Virus record (IMG/VR): IMGVR_UViG_2645727555_000023
DNA from: a virus
Lineage: Duplodnaviria; Heunggongvirae; Uroviricota; Caudoviricetes
Length of the DNA stretch: 4,795 nt
Reading direction: 5' to 3' (one strand)
A model generated the notes under the pieces. The model made no database searches and was not told where the DNA came from. It saw nothing but the letters and a program-made list of their open reading frames with translations. The position numbers and the translations under genes are program-made. Positions within the stretch are counted from its first letter, which is position 1; the number at the start of each line of letters is the position of its first letter. Shown piece after piece: positions 86-4,651 of this stretch.

Positions 86-178
86 CTACTCGGTAGAAAT
101 CAGCGACGGAACCAGTAAACCGTAGATGAGAGCCACTGAAAGGCCTGTGGCTACTGCCAATAGATAGATTTTGATCAT
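86..178 (-). CDS. Putative small hydrophobic peptide, 30 aa (MIKIYLLAVATGLSVALIYGLLVPSLISTE), probable single transmembrane helix
   Basis: Hand translation of the minus strand: ATG at 178-176, TAG stop at 88-86. AGGA Shine-Dalgarno at about 184-187, 5 nt upstream of the ATG. Not in the supplied ORF track (too short). Composition is almost entirely hydrophobic. No homolog recognised. Confidence 0.3.
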   Translation of the reverse strand: MIKIYLLAVATGLSVALIYGLLVPSLISTE

Positions 179-207
179 GTGTTTTCCTATGTGGTTGTTA
201 TGTGAAA

Positions 208-240: not shown

Positions 241-266
241 TAAAAAAGGCGTCCTGTGGACGCCTT
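241..266 (-). terminator. Rho-independent terminator downstream of the recombinase gene
   Basis: Minus-strand sequence right after the TAA stop (273-271): AAGGCGTCC-ACA-GGACGCCTT (9-bp GC-rich stem, 246-266) followed by TTTTTTA (247-241). On the plus strand it is preceded by an A-run and followed by T-rich TTGTGTTT, so it may act bidirectionally. Confidence 0.6.
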
Positions 267-270
267 GTGT

Positions 271-2610
271 TTACTCTTCTACTGACTCGGTGGGGTTGTC
301 TTTTGCTCTTCGGTCGTCGATTGCCTGCAAAGCCGCAATGATTTCAGCCAGTGGCTTCTCCCGATACATCTCGACGATCTGTGATTTGGTGTATTTCTTG
401 TCACCAATTTCAACTCGCCCGCTGGCGTTCTTTGGCAGGTATCCTTCATCCAGCATGTACTCGACGAGCGATTCGATAACGTCGAGGCCACGAGTAGGAT
501 CGAAGTAGAATTTCCAGGTGCATTTGCCATACGGTGGTGCAACTTTGTTTTTGATGCATTCTGCGCCTACGTCTTGGCCGATCTTCTCTTTACCATCCTT
601 CATCACCGATGCACCAAGACGGATACGTACAGAAGCGTAGAACTTCGGTGAATCTCCACCTGGCGACGTAGTAGGGTCGCCAAACATTACACCGATTTTT
701 GTGCGAACCTGATTCAAGAAGATGATGCAGGCGTTGTATTTGCGTGCCCACAAAGCCAGAGTAGGGAAGTTCGCACTCGTCGCACGAGCCAGTGCCGTAT
801 TGTCGTTCATGTTTAGCTGATCTTTGTCTTTGGCTGTGCCTTCAGCCATCTTTTCGAACTTCTCGGCTTTGGAGTTCGGAACCATAGACGCAAGAGAGTC
901 AGCCACGATACAGATTGGTGCTGATTCGGGGATAAGCTCTTCATCACGAACCAATTTAAGTATTGTGCCGATCAACTCTACAGAGTCTTCGAAGGTATCT
1001 GGCTGCTTGTATACCCACTGACCGTCATCCTCATCTGCGTTCAGGCCATTGGCTACAGCCAGGCCAACGTCAAAACTGTTTTCATGATCGAGGAATACCG
1101 CCAGACCATCTTGTTTTTGAGCGGAGATCATCGCTGCTGTTGCAAGGAATGTGTTGTGGCTGATAATCCCGTTAGACCAGAAAGAGTGTGTTTCCGGCAT
1201 CGCTACGTCGAACGTTGGTGCTTCACCTTCCTCAATAGCCACGACTTCGTCGTAGAACAAGTTAGAGCCAATTACCGCTGCCAGTTGTGCAAACAGATGC
1301 TCGTTAAAACGATTCTTTCTGCCAATGAAGGAGACATAGATTTCTCGCAGTTTGTCTATTCCGACACGATCGCCGCGGCCAATAACGTGGTCTACCAGAG
1401 CGTAGTCTTCACGGGTGGTCTTGGTGAGCGACTCGTAGAGTGATTTCACTAAGCCGCTGATGTGCGGAACATAGCCTGAGTAAGTGCGGTCAAAACCAAT
1501 GTCCCGTTTGGTTGCCACTGATAAACGTGCCGGAGATTCGAAACCAATCGTTGACAGAAAAAGGTCGTAATTAGAGCCACTGAATGACAGCCGGTAATAT
1601 GTATTTTCATAACCCGCGACGTGTTTTTCAGAGATAGTTGACGTAATCCCCAGATTCAGGAGCATGAGGCGAATTTGCTGTAGCAGCAGCCCACTCGCGC
1701 TTACAACCTCAATGCAGCGACCATCATTGACGTGGCATTCCAGCTCAAAGTAGCCGCGAAGGAATGCAATTTGAGCCTCGCTATTGGCGCGACGCACACT
1801 CAACGGAACCTGCTTGCCAGCAGCTTTCTCATACTCCAGACCATATTCTTTAAAAAGCAGCGAACGCACCTCTTTGCTAAACAGCACATGGTCTTCCGAG
1901 CCGTTATGTTTTCTCGTAACTGGCATCTTGTCTGATACCAGCGAAATGAGGCGGTAGTACTCATCCTTGATGAAAGGATCTGTGTTAGAAAAATTCACTG
2001 AATTTTCAGAGGCCACGTATCCGTCAGCAATTAAATAGCCCATCAGTTTTGCGATATTGGCATCCAGGTGCTGATCGCCGAATTGATGTGTGCCAACCAT
2101 TGAAGGAATCGTGTCGCCTACACTGATTTTTTCAGCATGTCGCCAGACGACATTACCTAAGTCGTCAACCACACGGATTGGGTGACGGAACGTAGCCTCG
2201 ATATAACCGCCTGATGCCAGCTTAATACGCTTGAATTTGCGACGGTTGTTCCATGTCAGGTGTGAGGTCTTCTCTATCACGCCATTTTCATTGATGAGTC
2301 CAACGTTATGCTCTACATCGCGAGTAGTGCATGTCGCTTTGTACCCTTCAATCTCAAACAACTCTTTCACTGTTACCATTCCACGCTCCGTCAGCAGCAT
2401 GGTGTCTGCGGTAACACATTTCCCCGCGCTTGGAGGACCGAATACTTCGACGATACGACCACATGGGAAGCCGCCATCGTAACGACCAGAAATAGCTTTG
2501 TTTAACGGTGGAAAGCCTGTATCAATCCAATGAGTTACTTTCTGAATTTCGTCGTTGCTACCGATTTTCTTTTTCAGAGCAAGTGCCAGTGCGGATTTTC
2601 CTTTTGCCAT
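271..2610 (-). CDS. recA: RecA-family recombinase precursor (779 aa) containing a 422-aa intein; predicted spliced product 357 aa
   Basis: Exteins align to bacterial RecA hallmarks: N-extein GRIVEVFGPPSAGK + C-extein TFLATAAMI rebuilds Walker A GPPSAGKT (RecA GPESSGKT); Walker B-like ICIVADSLASMVP; L2-loop region FLNQVRTKIGVMFGDPTTSPGGDSPKFYASVR closely matches RecA [32 protein letters not shown]. ATG at 2610 is preceded by AAAAGGAG 7 nt upstream. Symbol denotes RecA family; a phage-encoded homolog is likely. Confidence 0.9.
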   Translation of the reverse strand: MAKGKSALALALKKKIGSNDEIQKVTHWIDTGFPPLNKAISGRYDGGFPCGRIVEVFGPPSAGKCVTADTMLLTERGMVTVKELFEIEGYKATCTTRDVEHNVGLINENGVIEKTSHLTWNNRRKFKRIKLASGGYIEATFRHPIRVVDDLGNVVWRHAEKISVGDTIPSMVGTHQFGDQHLDANIAKLMGYLIADGYVASENSVNFSNTDPFIKDEYYRLISLVSDKMPVTRKHNGSEDHVLFSKEVRSLLFKEYGLEYEKAAGKQVPLSVRRANSEAQIAFLRGYFELECHVNDGRCIEVVSASGLLLQQIRLMLLNLGITSTISEKHVAGYENTYYRLSFSGSNYDLFLSTIGFESPARLSVATKRDIGFDRTYSGYVPHISGLVKSLYESLTKTTREDYALVDHVIGRGDRVGIDKLREIYVSFIGRKNRFNEHLFAQLAAVIGSNLFYDEVVAIEEGEAPTFDVAMPETHSFWSNGIISHNTFLATAAMISAQKQDGLAVFLDHENSFDVGLAVANGLNADEDDGQWVYKQPDTFEDSVELIGTILKLVRDEELIPESAPICIVADSLASMVPNSKAEKFEKMAEGTAKDKDQLNMNDNTALARATSANFPTLALWARKYNACIIFLNQVRTKIGVMFGDPTTSPGGDSPKFYASVRIRLGASVMKDGKEKIGQDVGAECIKNKVAPPYGKCTWKFYFDPTRGLDVIESLVEYMLDEGYLPKNASGRVEIGDKKYTKSQIVEMYREKPLAEIIAALQAIDDRRAKDNPTESVEE
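1153..2418 (-). mobile_element. Intein (422 aa) with LAGLIDADG homing-endonuclease domain, inserted in the recombinase P-loop between Lys64 and Thr(+1)
   Basis: Starts with Cys (TGT at 2418-2416) in a block-A-like CVTADTMLLTERG. Block B TFRHPIRVV (TxxH). Two LAGLIDADG motifs: LMGYLIADG (2046-2020) and LRGYFELEC (1761-1735). Blocks F/G TFDVAMPETHSFWSNGIISHN end in His-Asn (AAC at 1155-1153) followed by Thr +1. Removing it restores a contiguous 357-aa RecA. Confidence 0.85.
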
Positions 2611-2612
2611 GA

Positions 2613-2879
2613 TCAGGCTCCTTTTGTTTCGTTGATTCGTTTTACAGCGGCGGATTCATCGAATACAATCGCATCGTGGTTAAGGAGTCTGGATACACGA
2701 GCGAGGATTTTTACGACCTGCTCGCTGACTAATCCAAACTCGCGATCTGTCGCTTTCATTCCGGCAGCGCCTAGAATTGACGGCAGTGCGATGACAGCGT
2801 ACTCACCGTGATAAAAGACAATCTCTTTTGCCAGTTGGGCAGGGGTGGTTGTAGCGCCATTGATAATCGATTTAAGCAT
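2613..2879 (-). CDS. Hypothetical small protein (~88 aa), translationally coupled between the exonuclease and recombinase genes
   Basis: ORF track gives 2613..2885 from a TTG. The in-frame ATG at 2879-2877 overlaps the exonuclease TAA stop (2881-2879) as TAATG and is the more likely start. No recognisable motif; function unknown. Confidence 0.55.
   Translation of the reverse strand: MLKSIINGATTTPAQLAKEIVFYHGEYAVIALPSILGAAGMKATDREFGLVSEQVVKILARVSRLLNHDAIVFDESAAVKRINETKGA
2618..2624 (-). promoter_or_regulatory. Shine-Dalgarno (AAAAGGAG) for the recombinase gene, embedded in the 3' end of the upstream small ORF
   Basis: Minus-strand AAAAGGAG lies 7 nt upstream of ATG 2610 and overlaps the last codons (K-G-A) of the upstream ORF, whose TGA stop (2615-2613) sits 2 nt before the ATG: translational coupling. 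Confidence 0.6.
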
Positions 2880-3883: not shown

Positions 3884-4651
3884 TTACAGAGAGTCCAGTT
3901 CTCTCAGTAGGTCATCCAGACCTTCATCTTCCGTCGCAGATGCGGTTGCTACAGATGTCGCTGCTACTGCTTCAGACTCTTTGACTGATACGGCAACGGC
4001 AGCGGAACTTGCTTCTGGTTTAAATTCAGTTTCAACGGCACGGAGGATTTCTTCATCAACCAGACTGGTTGGTTCAGAAGCTGGGGTGTGAGCGGTTGCT
4101 ACAGCAGTCGCACCCTCCGTATGACCAGTGACAGAGCCAAATCCAGGCAGTGCCGCGGCCGATGTTTTCGCGGTAGAGGAAATTGCTGGTGCAGATGCTG
4201 CGGCAGTTGGTGCAGCGATGCCAATCAGACGACCCATAGTGCGAACTGTCGACAGAAGACGAGTTTCATCAGCCTGATTTGCGTATGCGATCAGATCATG
4301 CTGGGTGTTCCAGAATTTATCTTCGATATCGCCTTTGTAGACTTTACGCTTAGGCGAGACGTCATATTTGGTATCGCGACCAGAACCAGTACGTTTAATC
4401 AGGAATGCGTAGCCTTCCTCTTTGCTCAGTGGATTGCCGATATCATCAGCGATGTCTTCGGTGATTGCTTTGCAGATATCATCGAATACAGTAGACGGCA
4501 GCTCGATTAACTGGCATTTCTCAGCATCTGCGAAATCCTCACGAGCAGAAAGAATGCCGTTGACCAGGTAGCGAGGAGTGGCACGCATTTGACCGATGCG
4601 TTCTTCCATTGCTTTGTTACCCTTGTGACGAGCGCGACCTTCCATAACCAT
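3884..4651 (-). CDS. Putative ssDNA-binding protein (gp32-like features), probably a 3' fragment of a gene disrupted by the adjacent IS element
   Basis: Long Ala/Ser/Thr-rich low-complexity linker ending in acidic tail EDEGLDDLLRELDSL, typical of SSB C-termini. The frame stays open upstream of the first ATG up to the IS boundary (4701) and encodes C-x8-C-x2-C (YICEQHTHGRACQLCEM), reminiscent of the T4 gp32 zinc site. No Shine-Dalgarno precedes ATG 4651 or 4645. Functional call is motif-level only. Confidence 0.5.
   Translation of the reverse strand: MVMEGRARHKGNKAMEERIGQMRATPRYLVNGILSAREDFADAEKCQLIELPSTVFDDICKAITEDIADDIGNPLSKEEGYAFLIKRTGSGRDTKYDVSPKRKVYKGDIEDKFWNTQHDLIAYANQADETRLLSTVRTMGRLIGIAAPTAAASAPAISSTAKTSAAALPGFGSVTGHTEGATAVATAHTPASEPTSLVDEEILRAVETEFKPEASSAAVAVSVKESEAVAATSVATASATEDEGLDDLLRELDSL

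Follow-up and report, generated by a model that had tools for sequence, protein, structure and literature searches.

A predicted homing intein splits the P-loop of an SSU5-like phage-plasmid recombinase

Inteins of the RadA and RecA recombinases have been assigned to five insertion points (Topilina, Novikova, Stanger, Banavali & Belfort 2015, NAR 43:6631; PMC4513877). Here we describe one of them as it occurs in a 4,795-nt stretch of viral DNA (IMG/VR record IMGVR_UViG_2645727555_000023; hereafter the window), in which a predicted intein at positions 1153–2418 lies within the gene of a RecA/UvsX-like recombinase. The mycobacterial RecA inteins sit at other positions, as the first-pass annotation of the window had stated: at site a in Mycobacterium tuberculosis (252–691) and at site b in M. 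leprae (206–570; PMC4513877). Although the M. tuberculosis intein, which spans 440 residues, is similar in size to the one in the window, both mycobacterial elements lie ~140–190 residues downstream of the P-loop, in the chromosomal housekeeping recA of Actinobacteria. Closer in placement is the RadA intein of Pyrococcus horikoshii and Thermococcus (c1), which shares with the window intein the P-loop position, Cys1 and a C-extein that begins with Thr; its precursor, a member of the RecA superfamily, is ATPase-dead until spliced. The RadA inteins of P. horikoshii and T. sibiricus are, however, archaeal, thermophilic mini-inteins without an endonuclease, and the RadA intein was judged to be an invasion independent of c2, the corresponding point in RecA, with little sequence similarity to it (PMC4513877). 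A Foldseek comparison of the window intein with the RadA intein gave ~22% identity over the Hint core. The Lys/Thr site itself has been described as ‘classic’ for inteins that interrupt a P-loop (Kelley et al. 2016, PMC5050341). The TerL1-a inteins of mycobacteriophages differ in that their host protein is terminase and their hosts are actinophages, and they are not close relatives of the window intein (PMC5050341).

The insertion point in the window corresponds to c2. Table 1 of the 2015 study lists ‘c2 (65-486)’ of RecA in eight E. coli strains, among them MS 145-7 (E1IXC8), and also in Enterobacter cloacae BWH 29, Enterobacter sp. MGH 26 and Salmonella enterica 557928 (PMC4513877). The residue range and the P-loop site are those of the window, and the element itself shows no difference. 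The RefSeq plasmid protein of MS 145-7 is identical to the window protein at 778 of 779 residues, with the intein 100% identical. By this comparison the window intein is the c2 element already catalogued in 2015, and the suggestion of the first-pass annotation that it may be an undescribed allele has to be dropped. The 2015 paper treats c2 as a bacterial RecA intein, and the word ‘phage’ occurs in it 0 times (PMC4513877). Among the papers searched, none later than Topilina et al. [quoted passage not shown] What we add to the catalogue entry is the phage-plasmid context, allele frequencies, measurements of transfer and selection, and the size of the related family. The discovery value is small, because the element, the site and the idea of a ‘switch’ have all been published and RefSeq contains many copies of the sequence. 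The intein is present in hundreds of public plasmids. With a native E. coli intein, an apparently intact endonuclease, natural intein-less alleles on near-identical phage-plasmids and a clear signal of recent transfer between genera, the locus offers a convenient and unexploited model-organism system for homing in vivo, co-conversion and possible conditional splicing.

To place the insertion within the recombinase, we compared the precursor with and without the 422 residues of the insert. In its presence the Pfam RecA profile matched two separate stretches (E 3e-36), and in its absence a single continuous one (E 2e-42); the alignment of the RecA core reached precursor residue 703. In silico excision leaves an extein of 357 residues with a calculated mass of 39.0 kDa, and the order of the precursor is ...GRIVEVFGPPSAGK / CVTADTMLL...SNGIISHN / TFLATAAM..., where slashes, here and below, mark junctions. 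When aligned to E. coli RecA (PDB 3cmu), GRIVEVFGPPSAGKTFLAT of the window protein corresponds to GRIVEIYGPESSGKTTLTL, and GPPSAGK/T pairs with GPESSGK/T, which places the insertion point between the invariant Lys and Thr of Walker A. We take these two residues to be K72 and T73 in E. coli RecA numbering. The +1 position is the Walker A Thr, encoded by ACA at 1150–1152. The precursor matched phrog_9666 from end to end over 779 positions, and the spliced extein matched phrog_97, ‘UvsX-like recombinase’, at 1.6e-91. The extein reached 153 bits in the TIGR02012 equivalog test for housekeeping RecA, below the 325 bits required. On these profile matches, the extein is a phage-type paralogue within the RecA superfamily, distinct from housekeeping RecA.

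The insert itself was recognized by both splicing and endonuclease profiles, with Pfam and NCBIfam bit scores judged against curated cut-offs. In Pfam, it scored 46.6 bits for Intein_splicing (PF14890; cut-off 35.8) and 65.8 bits for LAGLIDADG_3 (PF14528; cut-off 22.5), the latter covering intein residues 215–292. In NCBIfam searches with the whole precursor, intein_Nterm (TIGR01445) scored 35.4 bits against 24.5 over residues 65–147, and intein_Cterm (TIGR01443) 17.8 bits against 15.6. Block B reads T76-F-R-H79, and the two LAGLIDADG motifs are KLMGYLIADG (intein residues 124–133, catalytic D132) and FLRGYFELEC (219–228, catalytic E227). The stretch of blocks F and G, PTFDV..P.THSF...IISH421-N422 followed by Thr, falls in columns that do not change across an alignment of related inteins. 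We found that all 11 full-length or near-full-length members checked in the 90% cluster of the protein keep Lys-1, C1, T76, H79, D132, E227, D404, H411, H421, N422 and Thr+1. The first-pass annotation had described an insert of 422 residues that splits the Walker A motif of a 779-residue RecA homologue and carries Cys1, a TxxH block, two LAGLIDADG motifs and a terminal His-Asn before Thr+1. Translation of the open reading frame (ORF) reproduces the limits exactly, all of these elements are present, and the insert matches the intein and LAGLIDADG profiles that it had named as a check.

Comparisons with solved inteins gave the same picture. In phmmer searches, intein residues 117–283 aligned to the endonuclease domain of the V-ATPase intein 7qsu and residues 117–274 to that of PI-PkoII (2cw7), and a DnaB intein was also among the sequence matches of the insert. 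An AlphaFold2 model of the intein (pLDDT 80.7, pTM 0.84) is predicted to adopt the Hint fold. Its top Foldseek matches were the endonuclease-bearing inteins TliVMA (7qss; E 1e-18), PI-PfuI, PI-PkoII and PI-SceI. Many mini-inteins followed at lower rank, among them that of RadA from P. horikoshii and that of RecA from M. tuberculosis, and the probability was 1.00 for the four top matches and for mini-inteins alike. The fold, together with profile scores that exceed the curated cut-offs, rules out a chance match of motifs. Judged by motifs and profiles, the insert is a class-1 intein with a nested, two-motif LAGLIDADG endonuclease.

Natural alleles that lack the insert provide independent evidence for its boundaries. 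The window is 98% identical to two Escherichia phages in which the insert is present, PhiR41_1 and Cyrano. It aligns in two pieces to Escherichia phage CMS-2020a (98.8% identity) and to Salmonella phage SSU5 (~80% identity). In CMS-2020a, the two recA flanks meet directly (0-nt gap; GGGAAA/ACGTTC) where the window has 1266 nt, so that the empty site reads GGTCCTCCAAGTGCAGGGAAA/ACGTTCCTTGCAACAGCAGCG, and the SSU5 allele has the same 0-nt gap where the window has its 1266 nt. The 357-residue RecA of CMS-2020a is identical to the predicted spliced product at 356 of 357 positions. The alignment with intein-less homologues that the first-pass annotation had proposed thus confirms the junction exactly, and the existence of a natural allele without precisely this 1266-nt stretch shows that the pattern of the insert is not due to chance. 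These alleles also bear on the idea that the recombinase has a long isoform in which the 422 residues form a conserved accessory domain, the outcome that the first-pass annotation had named as fatal to its proposal. The only point in favour of such a domain is that RefSeq gives the name ‘LAGLIDADG family homing endonuclease’ to the whole protein. Orthologues at 98.8% DNA identity are without exactly the 1266 nt, the intein profiles score above their curated cut-offs, and the insert breaks the invariant GK/T, so that ATP could be bound only after its removal. We give this idea almost no credence, as a conserved non-intein domain is refuted by the empty-site alleles of CMS-2020a and SSU5.

On this basis, we consider it highly probable that the element is a selfish homing intein in an active state and that its splicing is required to restore Walker A in the recombinase of an SSU5-type phage-plasmid. 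We infer splicing and cleavage from the intact catalytic residues, the purifying selection on both intein and extein, the empty-site polymorphism and the recent transfer described below. Following established intein chemistry, the 86.5-kDa precursor would be made with a broken P-loop and would hence be unable to bind ATP. An N–S acyl shift at Cys1 would be followed by attack of the hydroxyl of Thr+1, the predicted splice nucleophile, on the thioester; cyclization of Asn422 would free the 47.5-kDa intein, and an O–N shift would rebuild the GPPSAGKT P-loop in the 39-kDa recombinase. When two related phage-plasmids co-occupy a cell, the released intein would use its LAGLIDADG domain to cut the empty site of an intein-less recA, and recombinational repair would copy the intein into the cut allele, a process known as homing.

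To assess how widespread the two alleles are, we searched complete genomes and plasmids. Of 5426 complete E. coli genomes, 210 matched a 200-nt empty-site probe, and every match lay on a plasmid; 129 of these alleles were uninterrupted and ~81 were split. The ratio in PLSDB was similar, with 121 of 199 alleles uninterrupted. At least 113 of the 5426 genomes contain at least 80% of the window. Intein DNA was found in 248 PLSDB plasmids, from Escherichia (123), Klebsiella (71), Enterobacter (41), Citrobacter (6) and others. The window protein is exactly RefSeq WP_054192316.1, and its 90%-identity cluster has 1496 members. For the 779-residue precursor, RefSeq/PGAP uses the names ‘LAGLIDADG family homing endonuclease’ and ‘hint domain-containing protein’, and GenBank submitters have used ‘recombinase RecA’ and ‘hypothetical protein’; none of the database records examined annotates an intein in it. 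As a consequence of the PGAP naming, the recombinase of many phage-plasmids is mis-annotated, and comparisons of gene content can be distorted.

Comparison with Klebsiella phage vB_KpnS_p4727 (Kp4727), which also carries the intein, indicates that the element has moved recently. The two copies of the intein share 96.9% of their nucleotides, whereas identity is 78–81% for the exteins and 72–79% for the adjoining genes. The tract common to intein-bearing alleles extends only ~9 nt beyond each junction (GCGGGGAAA/.../ACATTCCT). By the Nei–Gojobori method, synonymous divergence (dS) was 0.094 for the intein and 1.88 for the C-extein, and was saturated for the N-extein. Because the dS of the intein is far below that of the extein, the intein must have moved between these backbones long after they diverged. 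The ratio of nonsynonymous to synonymous divergence (omega) for the intein was 0.14 in the comparison with the Klebsiella copy and 0.05 in that with Cyrano, and that of the C-extein, between the window and Kp4727, was 0.014. By these ratios, the intein is maintained by selection on its protein, and the low C-extein value in intein-bearing lineages implies that the spliced recombinase is made and used there.

These measurements also bear on the possibility that the intein is a splicing-dead or endonuclease-dead relic and that recA is an effective pseudogene in intein-bearing elements. In support of a relic, the window copy lies in a fragment flanked by insertion sequences (ISs), with a cut gene for the single-stranded DNA (ssDNA)-binding protein (ssb), and among metagenomic relatives whose host protein is RecA some (P0022, P0027 and P0028) have a degraded endonuclease domain. 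A homing cycle leads one to expect such degraded endonucleases. In the window intein, the splicing residues and the acidic residues of both LAGLIDADG motifs are intact, and they are invariant in the checked cluster members; together with the omega values of intein and C-extein, this makes a relic very unlikely. A decayed intein was rejected on the same grounds, that is, intact catalytic residues and an intein omega between 0.05 and 0.14.

Several observations weigh against an active homing intein. First, all intein-bearing alleles examined encode Thr+1 by ACA, and all intein-less ones by ACG or ACC. CMS-2020a has two more synonymous differences within the last four N-extein codons (window 2419–2430). 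We found no intein-less E. coli allele with the exact flanks of an intein-bearing allele, which would have pointed to precise loss or to a naive target; the best intein-less flank match was 99.0% identical over 200 nt and always had ACG at Thr+1. The difference at the Thr+1 codon could reflect either short co-conversion or resistance of the target site. Second, intein-less alleles with flank identities of 98.5–99% are common alongside intein-bearing ones in E. coli, and their frequency indicates that homing is not sweeping the population. Third, the IS-bracketed module with its cut ssb suggests that the window copy may sit in a decaying element and is perhaps not fully functional. Finally, the E. 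coli RecA intein was treated in the 2015 study by modelling only, with ‘data not shown’ (PMC4513877).

The position that the window intein shares with the RadA intein raises a further question, namely whether it has been domesticated for regulation, as a post-translational switch of the kind that the first-pass annotation had envisaged and that was already put forward for RadA. If so, conditional splicing would keep the recombinase ATPase-dead until it is needed, with release by, for example, ssDNA, damage to DNA, redox state or induction of the prophage. At the same insertion point, splicing of the RadA intein is controlled by its exteins and by temperature (PMC4513877) and by ssDNA (PMC5238726, PMC5790916), and a lowered efficiency of RadA splicing changes the replication mode in Thermococcus kodakarensis (PMC11409957). 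The recombinase of the window belongs to a T4-like module, with a gp32-like ssDNA-binding protein, a FEN exonuclease and, in Cyrano, a gene annotated as UvsY; gating would matter in such a module, and the intein is under purifying selection. However, it is the RadA intein whose splicing was demonstrated to be conditional; the window intein shares the insertion site only, is judged to be an independent invasion (PMC4513877) and has ~22% identity to it over the Hint core. Topilina et al. report that steric hindrance precludes the inhibitory intein–extein orientation of the RadA type in the precursor of E. coli RecA (PMC4513877). The sequence gives no sign of conditionality, and a purely selfish homing element also predicts purifying selection and recent horizontal transfer. 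Moreover, ~60% of E. coli alleles are without the intein in backbones that are otherwise near-identical, which indicates that the intein is dispensable. We regard a domesticated regulatory intein as unlikely.

Regulation and mobility are nevertheless compatible and can coexist. Conditional splicing in the native mesophilic host, triggered for example by ssDNA or by induction of the phage-plasmid, might gate the T4-like recombination module, possibly together with recombination-dependent replication, between the plasmid and the lytic state, while the endonuclease would attack the recA of intein-less competitors. We hold such a double role to be just as doubtful as regulation by itself; if true, the RadA switch of archaea would have a bacterial counterpart that is amenable to genetics. 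Our preferred explanation remains that of a selfish homing intein that is active.

To determine how far the window intein extends into a wider family, we searched 1.84 billion cluster representatives (50% identity) exhaustively with HMMER and obtained 189 relatives at E <=1e-30. Among the best 147 of these 189, 95 have RecA-like hosts, with a GK/C junction at the N terminus of the intein in 90 of the 95 and an HN/T or HN/S junction at its C terminus in 91 of the 95. Most of the non-RecA hosts in the same set also have GK/C, and they include proteins with a ..TNGGK/C...HN/TE junction, as in the helicases of Twort-like phages. Going by these junctions, the window intein belongs to a family of P-loop specialists. 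Its closest relatives in cultured phages, at 32–34% identity, are the intein of the Twort-like helicase and the RecA intein of Bacillus phage fHSPT3, which is likewise a member of the Herelleviridae. The former interrupts a UvsW-like helicase of Twort-like phages (Herelleviridae) as STNGGK/C...HN/TEIA and is annotated in Staphylococcus phage Twillingate. The latter has the same P-loop position as the window intein, in the form GKPGGGK/C...VNHN/STLAF. Both resemble the window intein in architecture, in the GK/C...HN/T or HN/S junction and in similarity over the full length, but differ in host protein or phage family and in their Gram-positive hosts. The 825-residue fHSPT3 ‘protein RecA’ (L004 1288–3765) contains its 422-residue intein unannotated, at 33% identity to that of the window.

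The features of the window are collected in Table 1. The gene order is that of a T4-style recombination module on an SSU5-like phage-plasmid, and a gene annotated as ‘UvsY recombination mediator’ lies just upstream in Cyrano. A Rep3 replication gene is found nearby, and in complete E. coli genomes the module occurs only on plasmids, typically circular replicons of ~110 kb. The genes ssb, exo, orf88 and recA are closely spaced, and this tight spacing suggests a single operon; the hairpin that follows recA looks like an intrinsic terminator.

Table 1. Features of the 4,795-nt window, with positions counted from its first nucleotide
Feature	Position	Strand	Basis or remark
Precursor gene of the RecA/UvsX-like recombinase with intein	271..2610	-	779 aa, 86.5 kDa; ORF list, Pfam, phrog
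N-extein, aa 1–64, last residues Walker A GPPSAGK (codons 2419–2439)	2419..2610	-	translation, P-loop alignment to PDB 3cmu
Predicted intein, 422 aa, 47.5 kDa, precursor residues 65–486	1153..2418	-	profiles, empty-site alleles, fold model
N-terminal splicing (Hint) region: block A Cys1, block B T76-x-x-H79	2104..2418	-	TIGR01445, related-intein alignment
Nested LAGLIDADG homing-endonuclease domain	1519..2070	-	Pfam LAGLIDADG_3, phmmer to solved inteins
C-terminal splicing region: block F PTFDVAMPETHSF, block G IISHN (H421, N422)	1153..1266	-	TIGR01443, related-intein alignment
C-extein, aa 487–779 and stop codon, first residue Walker A Thr	271..1152	-	translation, 3cmu alignment
Terminator-like hairpin with T-run, directly after the recA stop	246..266	-	9 bp, 6 of them G-C
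Small conserved ORF (orf88), 88 aa, phrog_2207 (function unknown), between exonuclease gene and recA	2613..2879	-	
5'-3' (FEN-type) exonuclease gene (exo), 314 aa	2879..3823	-	Pfam 5_3_exonuc_N and 5_3_exonuc
T4 gp32-like ssDNA-binding protein gene (ssb), 5' end cut by IS629	3884..4651	-	Pfam gp32
End of IS21-family (IS100-like) element, outside the phage-plasmid module	1..94	.	
IS629 (IS3 family) left end, outside the phage-plasmid module	4702..4795	.	matches IS629 features, Stx phage records

The window is the complete 4795-nt contig DF970385.1 (GCA_001297725.1), with IS fragments at both ends, and similarity to the phage backbone begins at approximately position 89–95. Either IS insertions enclose the 4.6-kb recombination module in this strain, or the assembly broke at these elements. 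The gp32-like ssb encodes 255 aa in the window as compared with 340–342 aa in relatives (full-length in L007–L009 and Cyrano), and the Pfam gp32 match spans profile positions 60–208 only. On the other side of recA, a downstream gene for a 66-residue membrane protein (~95–187, minus strand) is shortened to 30 aa by the IS21-family element.

Outside the window, we observed that the dnaE gene (Pol III alpha) of the phage-plasmid is split in the MS 145-7 plasmid and in the metagenome contig L007, and is uninterrupted, at 1172 aa, in L008 and L009 (coordinates in the relatives: L012 8496–10610, L013 201–4513 and L007 1–1876). In MS 145-7, the pieces are an N-terminal ORF of 787 aa, a free-standing HNH endonuclease gene of 244 aa and a C-terminal ORF of ~372 aa. 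This split is a second homing-endonuclease polymorphism, ~4 kb from recA.

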